The notes below the pieces were generated by a model. It saw only the letters and a program-made list of their open reading frames with translations. It did not search any database and was not told where the DNA came from. A stretch of DNA of 64,000 nt, from assembly GCA_964389545.1 (NCBI GenBank), contig CAYMDN010000001.1, positions 39,592 to 103,591 of the forward strand. Reading direction: 5' to 3'. This DNA is from an uncultured Clostridium sp. GTDB lineage: Bacteria > Bacillota > Clostridia > TANB77 > CAG-508. Both the position numbers and the translations under genes were made by a program. The first letter of the stretch is position 1. Every line of letters begins with the position of its first letter. Below are positions 37,322 to 37,789 of the stretch, piece by piece.

Positions 37322-37355
37322 TGTATAAAAAAGAAGACCAGCCCCGACTGGGGCT
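37322..37355 (-). terminator. Intrinsic terminator (minus strand)
   Basis: CAGCCCC-GACT-GGGGCTG, then TCTTCTTTTTTATACA on the minus strand. Confidence 0.7.
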
Positions 37356-37410
37356 GATCTCTCCGCTTCTTTGCCATATGTAATTTTTTACTTGGTACGC
37401 TCACACATCC

Positions 37411-37671
37411 CTACCCTTCGTGGTTGAAGACGAGATGGATTCCATGCCCTTCCGTGTGCATTTTGAAGCCCTCTCTTTTGAGGTCTTCGGGAACAGTGGC
37501 ATTGCATCCACAATCCAGGAAAGTTCGTCCCATGCGTGCCTGCACAAGGCAGTCACGCAGAGTTTTTTCCTCGGATAATCCCGCAATGTCCCTGTCAAAT
37601 GCACTTACCAGCCGAGCCTGTTCACACCCGCGTGTCTTCGAGATGTCGTAGAGCCTAGAAGCCAGTGTCAT
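37411..37671 (-). CDS. GC-rich 86-aa protein of unknown function (foreign-looking cassette)
   Basis: RBS AAGGGAGG 8 nt before ATG. GC3-rich codons (CTG, GGC, CGC, CGG), ~50-55% GC by eye against ~28% background. Confidence 0.45.
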   Translation of the reverse strand: MTLASRLYDISKTRGCEQARLVSAFDRDIAGLSEEKTLRDCLVQARMGRTFLDCGCNATVPEDLKREGFKMHTEGHGIHLVFNHEG

Positions 37672-37741
37672 TAGGAAAACCTCCCTTCAAAAAAATTTTT
37701 TTCTGGTTCCCATGACGTCTTCTAAAAAAGTCGTACTATTA

Positions 37742-37770
37742 ATTATACCACGTTTTCAGCAGTTTGTCTA
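37742..37770 (-). promoter_or_regulatory. Near-consensus sigma-A promoter TAGACA-N17-TGgTATAAT driving the GC-rich gene
   Basis: Read on the minus strand, with extended -10. Confidence 0.6.
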
Positions 37771-37789
37771 CCTTTTTCCTAATTTTACG

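Follow-up and report, generated by a model that had tools for sequence, protein, structure and literature searches.

Sharp GC anomalies in AT-rich genomes are usually taken for horizontal transfers or structured RNAs, and a GC-rich island on the minus strand of a contig from an uncultured Clostridium sp. (CAYMDN010000001.1, assembly GCA_964389545.1) raises the question of whether either reading holds. The stretch analysed here, hereafter the window, is 64,000 nucleotides (nt) long, and all coordinates refer to it unless a related locus or contig (L001, L005, etc.) is named. The island carries an open reading frame (ORF) of 86 codons, the “small gene” of this study, immediately downstream of htrA. 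A preliminary description of the window had proposed that this gene was recently acquired or, alternatively, that the island was a structured non-coding RNA with a coincidental ORF. According to our analysis, the small gene is neither: it is very probably a vertically inherited protein gene under purifying selection, the atypical composition of which has been maintained.

The island encodes a protein under purifying selection

In 100-nt intervals, GC content reaches 0.48–0.53 over positions 37350–37700 and is 0.21–0.30 on either side, in agreement with the island first described, and in 200-nt intervals the island forms the highest peak of the whole window (0.525; mean 0.276, standard deviation 0.047, z = 5.3). 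The promoter, the ribosome-binding site, the 86-codon ORF with an in-frame CGG and the terminator recognised in the preliminary description are all present on the minus strand (37325–37770), the promoter being of the near-consensus extended -10 type and the terminator stem 12 bp long, and they make up a self-contained small gene with strong expression signals. Sixteen such cassettes were compared at the DNA level. Among nine b-type orthologues (the a and b types are introduced below), nucleotide identity at codon positions 1, 2 and 3 amounts to 0.68, 0.74 and 0.48, respectively. Within-clade pairs have proportions of nonsynonymous differences (pN) of 0.13–0.36 versus proportions of synonymous differences (pS) of 0.37–0.78, while the corresponding rate ratio (dN/dS) is 0.12–0.57 where dS is computable. 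The small gene is protein-coding and under purifying selection.

The strong folding of the window transcript, over its full length (-143.8 kcal/mol, z = -4.7) and in the coding region (z = -2.65), would suit a structured non-coding RNA whose ORF is coincidental, and long antisense open frames, one of which was annotated by a gene caller in a relative, would suit a real gene on the other strand. Yet Rfam returns no match in the whole window at gathering thresholds, and relaxing the search to E ≤ 10 over 37200–37900 brings up only chance-level matches (E ≥ 1, 12–17 bits versus thresholds of 45–91), none of them on the GC-rich body. RNAalifold, applied to the codon-aligned orthologues, yields -13.6 kcal/mol over 249 columns (z = -0.9 versus column shuffles), with no conserved helices in the coding region. 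Moreover, substitutions follow the sense frame, dN is well below dS and the predicted protein fold is confident (see below). An antisense gene was rejected, its frame being interrupted in four of the 12 members of the GC-rich clade; where antisense frames are open, this is the expected by-product of avoiding TTA, CTA and TCA. The RNA put forward in the preliminary description thus finds no support, and we judge it, along with its opposite-strand variant, to be barely credible. The idea of a CsrA sponge was also rejected, as GGA motifs are not enriched over synonymous shuffles.

Annotation of such genes deserves a remark of its own. At L005 (5554–5964, minus strand), the metagenome annotation holds a 136-aa ORF opposite the a-type copy and omits the real gene of 90 aa, while the window's own protein is absent from a collection of 15 billion proteins. 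GC-rich small genes in AT-rich genomes are prone to mis-annotation, gene callers sometimes missing the gene or taking the opposite strand.

A fixed locus downstream of htrA

Every related contig long enough to show its neighbours has the same gene order, namely a divergent gene for a nonribosomal peptide synthetase (NRPS), htrA and the small gene, and this extends to members (L019, L020, L022) only 28–37% identical to the window protein. In all related loci, the -35 box TAGACA of the small-gene promoter overlaps the htrA stop codon, its TAG (37770–37768 in the window) being the ancestral htrA stop. The identity of the small protein also tracks that of HtrA (Spearman 0.84 over 28 pairs, which are non-independent), HtrA being 69–75% identical between the window and its nearest relatives and 62–64% between the window and an outgroup clade. 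This outgroup, at the same locus, has AT-richer orthologues of the small gene (GC 0.36–0.38; GC content at third codon positions, GC3, 0.23–0.35). By every indication in these sequences, the small gene is vertically inherited and fixed directly downstream of htrA in a group of AT-rich Clostridium genomes.

At face value, a recently acquired foreign gene would account for the strong compositional anomaly and for a choice of codons that would be typical at a genomic GC of about 55%. Against this stand the conserved gene order and a divergence in step with that of htrA over lineages in which HtrA identity is down to 62–75%, the promoter overlapping the htrA stop in every species, the AT-richer orthologues at the same locus and the saturation of synonymous sites between the window and its relatives (pS 0.63–0.78). 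Neither plasmid nor phage collections, searched at the DNA and protein levels, gave a match for the small gene, no meaningful repeats flank the cassette, and there are no mobility genes in the window, the neighbours being htrA and marR. An insertion signature was considered and rejected, the sole repeat consisting of the -10 regions of two promoters, that of the small gene and that of marR. The comparison of the locus suggested in the preliminary description thus speaks against a foreign origin, as do the AT-richer versions in relatives, which that description had itself named as evidence that would refute one, and recent acquisition appears very improbable to us.

In some relatives, an a-type and a b-type cassette stand in tandem (Table 1); each has a promoter, a leader and a terminator of its own, and the encoded proteins are 46% identical. 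The duplicated unit takes in the last htrA codons (cttggcaaaaagtag).

An inverted and maintained composition

The window's clade, sampled by 12 sequences from at least nine loci, has a coding GC of 0.50–0.60 and a GC3 of 0.56–0.83, to be compared with a GC3 of 0.13–0.19 in the neighbouring upstream htrA and with a GC of 0.26–0.36 in the contigs. A distant member, L030 (32% identity), reaches a GC3 of 0.88 between AT-rich flanks. Overall codon usage is nearly the inverse of that of host genes: for the small gene versus host genes, the values are 0.79 versus 0.01 for CTG plus CTC (Leu), 0.60 versus 0.03 for CCG (Pro), 0.60 versus 0.08 for GTG (Val) and 0.94 versus 0.21 for CAG (Gln), whereas ATA (Ile) falls to 0 versus 0.46 and TTA (Leu) to 0.02 versus 0.63. 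Along the gene, GC3 is evenly high from codon 7 to the stop (0.60–0.92 in six-codon bins) and only 0.40 in codons 1–6. The bias also reaches the 3' untranslated region (UTR), which has a GC of 0.40–0.51 in b-type members of the clade and is short and AT-rich in the outgroup. Since synonymous sites are saturated, the GC-richness cannot be an un-ameliorated remnant; all in all, it is actively maintained and not a foreign leftover.

A neutral or biased process could also produce such a pattern, namely local GC-biased gene conversion or repair at a locus that is recombination-prone and sometimes duplicated, and the almost identical promoters and leaders of the tandem copies could reflect gene conversion. 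However, with proteins only 46% identical, conversion does not reach the coding body of these copies, and genomes with a single copy, that of the window included, are GC-rich too. The bias, furthermore, breaks off abruptly at the AT-rich leader and sets in again with codon 7, while the adjacent htrA is unaffected (GC3 0.15). We therefore view a neutral origin as quite improbable.

The main rival to selection on the RNA itself, which is discussed below, is selection on codons. Rarely used codons would tie translation to low-demand tRNAs or to wobble modifications and thereby couple the output of the gene to stress or starvation, as in bldA/TTA control in Streptomyces, modification-tunable transcripts and starvation-robust tRNA isoacceptors. 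The almost exact inversion of host codon usage, the GC3 kept despite saturated synonymous turnover and the position of the small gene next to a stress protease gene, in every locus long enough to show it, all agree with such gating. Yet the non-coding 3' UTR is GC-rich as well, and a C-ending codon is read by the same tRNA as its U-ending partner, which leaves the strong preference for C (ATC, TTC, GAC, AAC) unexplained by tRNA choice. Strong initiation followed by slow elongation would also be an odd design. No tRNA genes occur within the 64-kb window. Codon-level gating is, in our opinion, a serious but unlikely explanation.

Architecture and conservation of the expression cassette

The features of the cassette and of its neighbours are given in Table 1. 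The promoter scores 11 out of 12 plus the TG extension, a match that by itself does not rise above chance, as eight promoter-like sites were observed in 2 kb versus 9.5 expected. Its significance comes instead from conservation across species: it is kept, spacer included, in all 15 related cassettes compared, and mean pairwise identity from the -35 to the -10 box (spacer included) is 0.86 among nine b-type cassettes of the GC-rich clade versus 0.48 at third codon positions. The promoter is probably active, with transcription starting near 37735 as judged from the position of the -10 box. The GGAGG ribosome-binding site is found in all members, and a strong terminator occurs at the equivalent place in every homologue, the stem differing in sequence each time and measuring 10–18 bp. 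Terminator-like sites are themselves enriched in a 2-kb scan (four observed versus 0.5 expected). With such signals, high expression of the small gene is plausible. In the window copy, the coding sequence (CDS) has a GC of 0.52 (0.59, 0.43 and 0.56 at codon positions 1, 2 and 3).

Table 1. Coordinates of the small-gene cassette, of its neighbours and of tandem cassettes in related loci (window positions unless a locus is named).
Feature	Position	Strand	Details
Sigma-A-type promoter	37742–37770	-	-35 TAGACA (37770–37765), 17-nt spacer, extended -10 TGgTATAAT (37750–37742)
5' leader	37672–37735	-	A7/T7 run and ribosome-binding site AAGGGAGG (37687–37680), 8 nt before ATG at 37671
Small-gene CDS	37411–37671	-	86 aa; includes in-frame CGG; stop TAG at 37413–37411
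3' UTR	37362–37410	-	two motifs: UACAUA (37382–37377), GAAGCGG (37369–37363)
Intrinsic terminator	37325–37361	-	12-bp stem, 7 G-C pairs, 4-nt loop (37361–37334), then CTTTTTT
htrA	37768–38887	-	trypsin-like protease and PDZ domain (Pfam matches); upstream of small gene
NRPS gene	39089–43426	+	predicted single module, 1445 aa; divergent from htrA
Tandem cassettes, L003	4545–5252		promoters and leaders nearly identical
Tandem cassettes, L005	5560–6252		promoters and leaders nearly identical
Tandem cassettes, L024	483–1182		promoters and leaders nearly identical
Tandem cassettes, L025	765–1470		promoters and leaders nearly identical

Conservation is stronger in the expression cassette than in the protein. 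In the first six codons (37654–37671), identity rises to 0.94, synonymous positions included, versus 0.48 at third positions elsewhere; these codons read ATGACACTCGCTTCTAAA in relatives, the window having CTG in place of CTC. This indicates a nucleotide-level constraint at the start of the gene. Upstream, relatives have a 5'-proximal hairpin (CUUGGU...ACCAAG in the clade, CUUGAUGU...ACAUCAGG in the outgroup) followed by an A/U run and GGAGG, and the b-type copy of L025 shows a compensating U/A insertion in this hairpin. The evidence for the hairpin comes from inspection and single-sequence folds, MAFFT having put the stems of the two clades in different columns.

Just before the terminator, the motif UACAUA, 2–7 nt, GAAGCG(R) is found in all nine b-type members (the window, L001, L005, L011, L015, L024, L025, L027 and L029), with TACATA invariant and GAAGCG nearly so despite only 48% identity at third codon positions. 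GAAGCGA is complementary to codons 3–5 (UCGCUUCU), themselves synonymously invariant in relatives, and UACAU is the cleavage motif reported for MazF/EndoA in Firmicutes. These features would suit a dual-function transcript, in which the 3' end of the mRNA also gives rise to a regulatory RNA, made of a small hairpin, a single-stranded UACAUA...GAAGCG and the terminator. However, covariation is absent, and the complementarity is weaker in the window, where the CDS reads CUGGCUUCU (6 bp and a mismatch). Neither the a-type copies nor the outgroup have the motif, its structural context differs between members, and a search of the 64-kb window for a complementary target found only the motif itself. 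As a dual function would moreover leave the GC-rich coding body unexplained, we deem it improbable.

Two further observations concern the boundaries of the cassette. A perfect 10-nt inverted repeat (37670–37679 and 37774–37783) pairs AUUAGGAAAA, at the end of htrA, with UUUUCCUAAU, between the ribosome-binding site and the ATG; it could mask initiation on read-through transcripts, although it is not conserved in relatives and may be due to chance. Directly after the small-gene terminator, marR has a perfect promoter of its own (37285–37313, minus strand; TTGACA-17-TGgTATAAT, 12 out of 12), the -10 region of which has 14 of 16 nt in common with that of the small gene.

What may maintain the composition

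The explanation that we favour as a whole combines a vertically inherited coding gene with a composition kept by selection at the RNA level, and we grant it roughly even confidence. The small gene would be transcribed from its conserved sigma-A-type promoter, the -35 box of which lies over the htrA stop codon, and read-through from htrA is probable as well, because there is no terminator between the two genes. Translation would start from a strong ribosome-binding site preceded by an A/U-rich tract. High GC is kept up along the body of the transcript, from codon 7 onwards and including the 3' UTR, and a body of this kind offers degrading endonucleases few AU-rich single-stranded sites. Such a body, together with the 5' hairpin (in relatives), the strong ribosome-binding site and the unusually long terminator stem, would result in a long-lived, high-yield mRNA. 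We favour selection on the RNA because the non-coding 3' UTR shares the bias, which is accompanied by the 5' hairpin, the strong ribosome-binding site and the long terminator. Taken separately, selection for a nuclease-resistant, long-lived mRNA nevertheless remains a tentative proposal. As for the small protein, it may be linked either to a protein-quality or envelope-stress response associated with htrA or to the NRPS.

The broader statement, that a vertically inherited gene has been held at 50–64% GC (GC3 up to 0.88) in genomes of about 27% GC, across a divergence leaving HtrA about 62–75% identical, by gene-specific selection that inverts the genome bias, whether for a nuclease-resistant mRNA or for rare-tRNA translation under stress, seems to us possible at slightly less than even confidence.

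Several points weigh against the favoured explanation. First, the folding of the coding region relative to synonymous-codon shuffles is inconsistent across members (z from -3.0 to +2.2), so that any benefit at the RNA level must come from GC content as such and not from a particular fold; the proposal does not need one, which fits the lack of conserved structure. Second, GC3 is not maximal (0.56 in the window), and the small gene uses codons much as an ordinary genome of about 55% GC would, something that does not follow specifically from a stability model. Third, much of the GC of the 3' UTR sits in hairpins, with the consequence that this region separates RNA-level from codon-level selection only weakly. 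Fourth, the proposed functional link of the small gene to htrA or the NRPS is drawn solely from gene order.

Finally, the window's own copy is the most degenerate member of the family, its GC3 being the lowest of its clade. Its 5' hairpin is degenerate and missing from the predicted minimum-energy fold, and its protein is the only member to deviate at four of 30 near-invariant residues (H32L, R56C, A74E, D83N). The htrA of the window also has an apparent +1 frameshift near 37801–37812 (motif CGGAAGAGAG at 37810–37801), its ORF ending at 37790. Frame 1 ends in NRSRKRVYG and a stop (ELKINRSRKRVYG, stop), whereas frame 2 reads GREYTVNVKLGKR and a stop, matching the C-terminus of all relatives and ending at the TAG in the -35 box; the conserved C-terminal GREYxVNVKLGK(K/R) is thereby replaced by KRVYG. 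This frameshift is either a real truncation of the end of the PDZ domain or a sequencing error. The window copy of the small gene may be under relaxed constraint, or its function may have changed in this lineage.

An undescribed family of small proteins

A first protein search returned one homologue, of 85 aa and 56% identity, and profile searches brought the number of close relatives to 20. Among 1.84 billion cluster representatives, 33 matched at E ≤ 1e-3: 30 are proteins of 78–112 aa, and the other three match only weakly and in part, within long proteins. The homologues stem mostly from short metagenomic contigs, and the genome and metagenome scans used narrow peptide patterns, which do not define the taxonomic spread of the family. 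Its conserved pattern is M-T/K-L-A/G..L..I...F...I.GH.EE.LL..CL..A..GR..D/I.FGRN..P..L..EGF....G.GF.

The statement of the preliminary description that the product belongs to no recognisable family holds. Neither Pfam, scanned with 42 members, nor NCBIfam nor PHROGs gave a family match, and a search of PDB sequences gave only a marginal match to a designed protein (E = 0.008). No member is named in any source of the homologues, and literature searches on the NRPS context and on GC-rich genes in AT-rich genomes yielded nothing describing the small gene. AlphaFold2, run on an alignment of 42 sequences, predicts three helices followed by a three-stranded sheet (pLDDT 88.4, pTM 0.76), for which the best Foldseek matches fall short of significance in both PDB (E = 2.4) and BFVD (E = 0.07, TM 0.40). 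As modelled, the product of the small gene is a cytoplasmic alpha/beta protein, 86 aa long, and it represents an undescribed family.

Neighbouring features

From its ORF and from its relatives, the NRPS of the window is predicted to comprise condensation (C), adenylation (A), carrier (T) and terminal reductase (R) domains. Relatives have a two-module NRPS of about 2480 aa at the equivalent place, the layouts being C-A-T-R or C-A-T-C-A-T-R. NRPSs of this domain layout in gut Clostridia reportedly yield peptide aldehydes, which are protease inhibitors, or pyrazinones.

On the plus strand, a 152-aa ORF with a GTG start and an elevated GC (36186–36644; 0.31–0.40) aligns with the zinc carboxypeptidase M14 profile over its C-terminal half only (positions 128–263 of 286). 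Similar short or split M14 ORFs lie near the locus in L013, L019 and L020, and the ORF of the window may be a truncated gene. A second GC island (16010–16454, minus strand; GC up to 0.455), which has no match in Rfam, holds two neighbouring ORFs (82 and 76 aa), apparently a single gene split by a frameshift.

Comparison with known systems

The small gene bears on how compositional anomalies are interpreted, for its atypical composition has survived a complete turnover of synonymous sites. It defines an undescribed family of small proteins, fixed at a locus with htrA and an NRPS bearing a terminal reductase domain, and provides a natural setting in which selection on synonymous sites and on the composition of mRNAs can be tested cleanly in Firmicutes.

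With horizontally acquired compositional islets, it has in common a sharp GC anomaly confined to one small gene and a codon usage foreign to the host, but it differs from them in its vertical inheritance at a fixed locus, its AT-richer orthologues, its saturated synonymous sites and the lack of mobility signatures. MbtH-like proteins (PF03621), the small partners of NRPSs, are likewise about 70–90 aa long and encoded next to an NRPS gene. In the Pfam scan, however, no match to them came from any of the 42 members of the small-protein family; the order of secondary structures is different, and the small gene is tied to htrA by an overlapping promoter.

In Firmicutes, a 5' stem-loop combined with GGAGG and a strong terminator is an architecture associated with very long mRNA half-lives. 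In its sequence architecture, the cassette resembles the 5' stabilisers of Bacillus mRNAs (the aprE leader stem-loop, ermC, the cryIIIA STAB-SD), bringing together a 5' stem-loop, a perfect GGAGG and a strong terminator. The differences are that the hairpin of the window is degenerate and that the stabilisers, as described, do not include a GC-rich coding body. Dual-function small RNAs (RNAIII/hld, SR1/SR1P, VR-RNA of Clostridium perfringens) are comparable as short, independent and well-folding transcripts with a small ORF and conserved untranslated motifs, yet in the small gene the ORF is the dominant constraint, and there is no conserved structure of the body, no target in the 64-kb window and no Rfam match.

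Lastly, rare-codon regulation, as exemplified by bldA/TTA in Streptomyces, by modification-tunable transcripts and by starvation-robust isoacceptors, similarly concerns a single gene, set among stress-related neighbours, whose codons are avoided elsewhere in the genome. Here, though, the whole coding body is shifted, and not a few sentinel codons, and the 3' UTR is shifted as well. If selection does hold the composition of the small gene, then it would be acting on an undescribed family linked to htrA and an NRPS, with a predicted fold unmatched in PDB and BFVD, and would amount to the mirror image, in an AT-rich anaerobe, of control of the bldA type.

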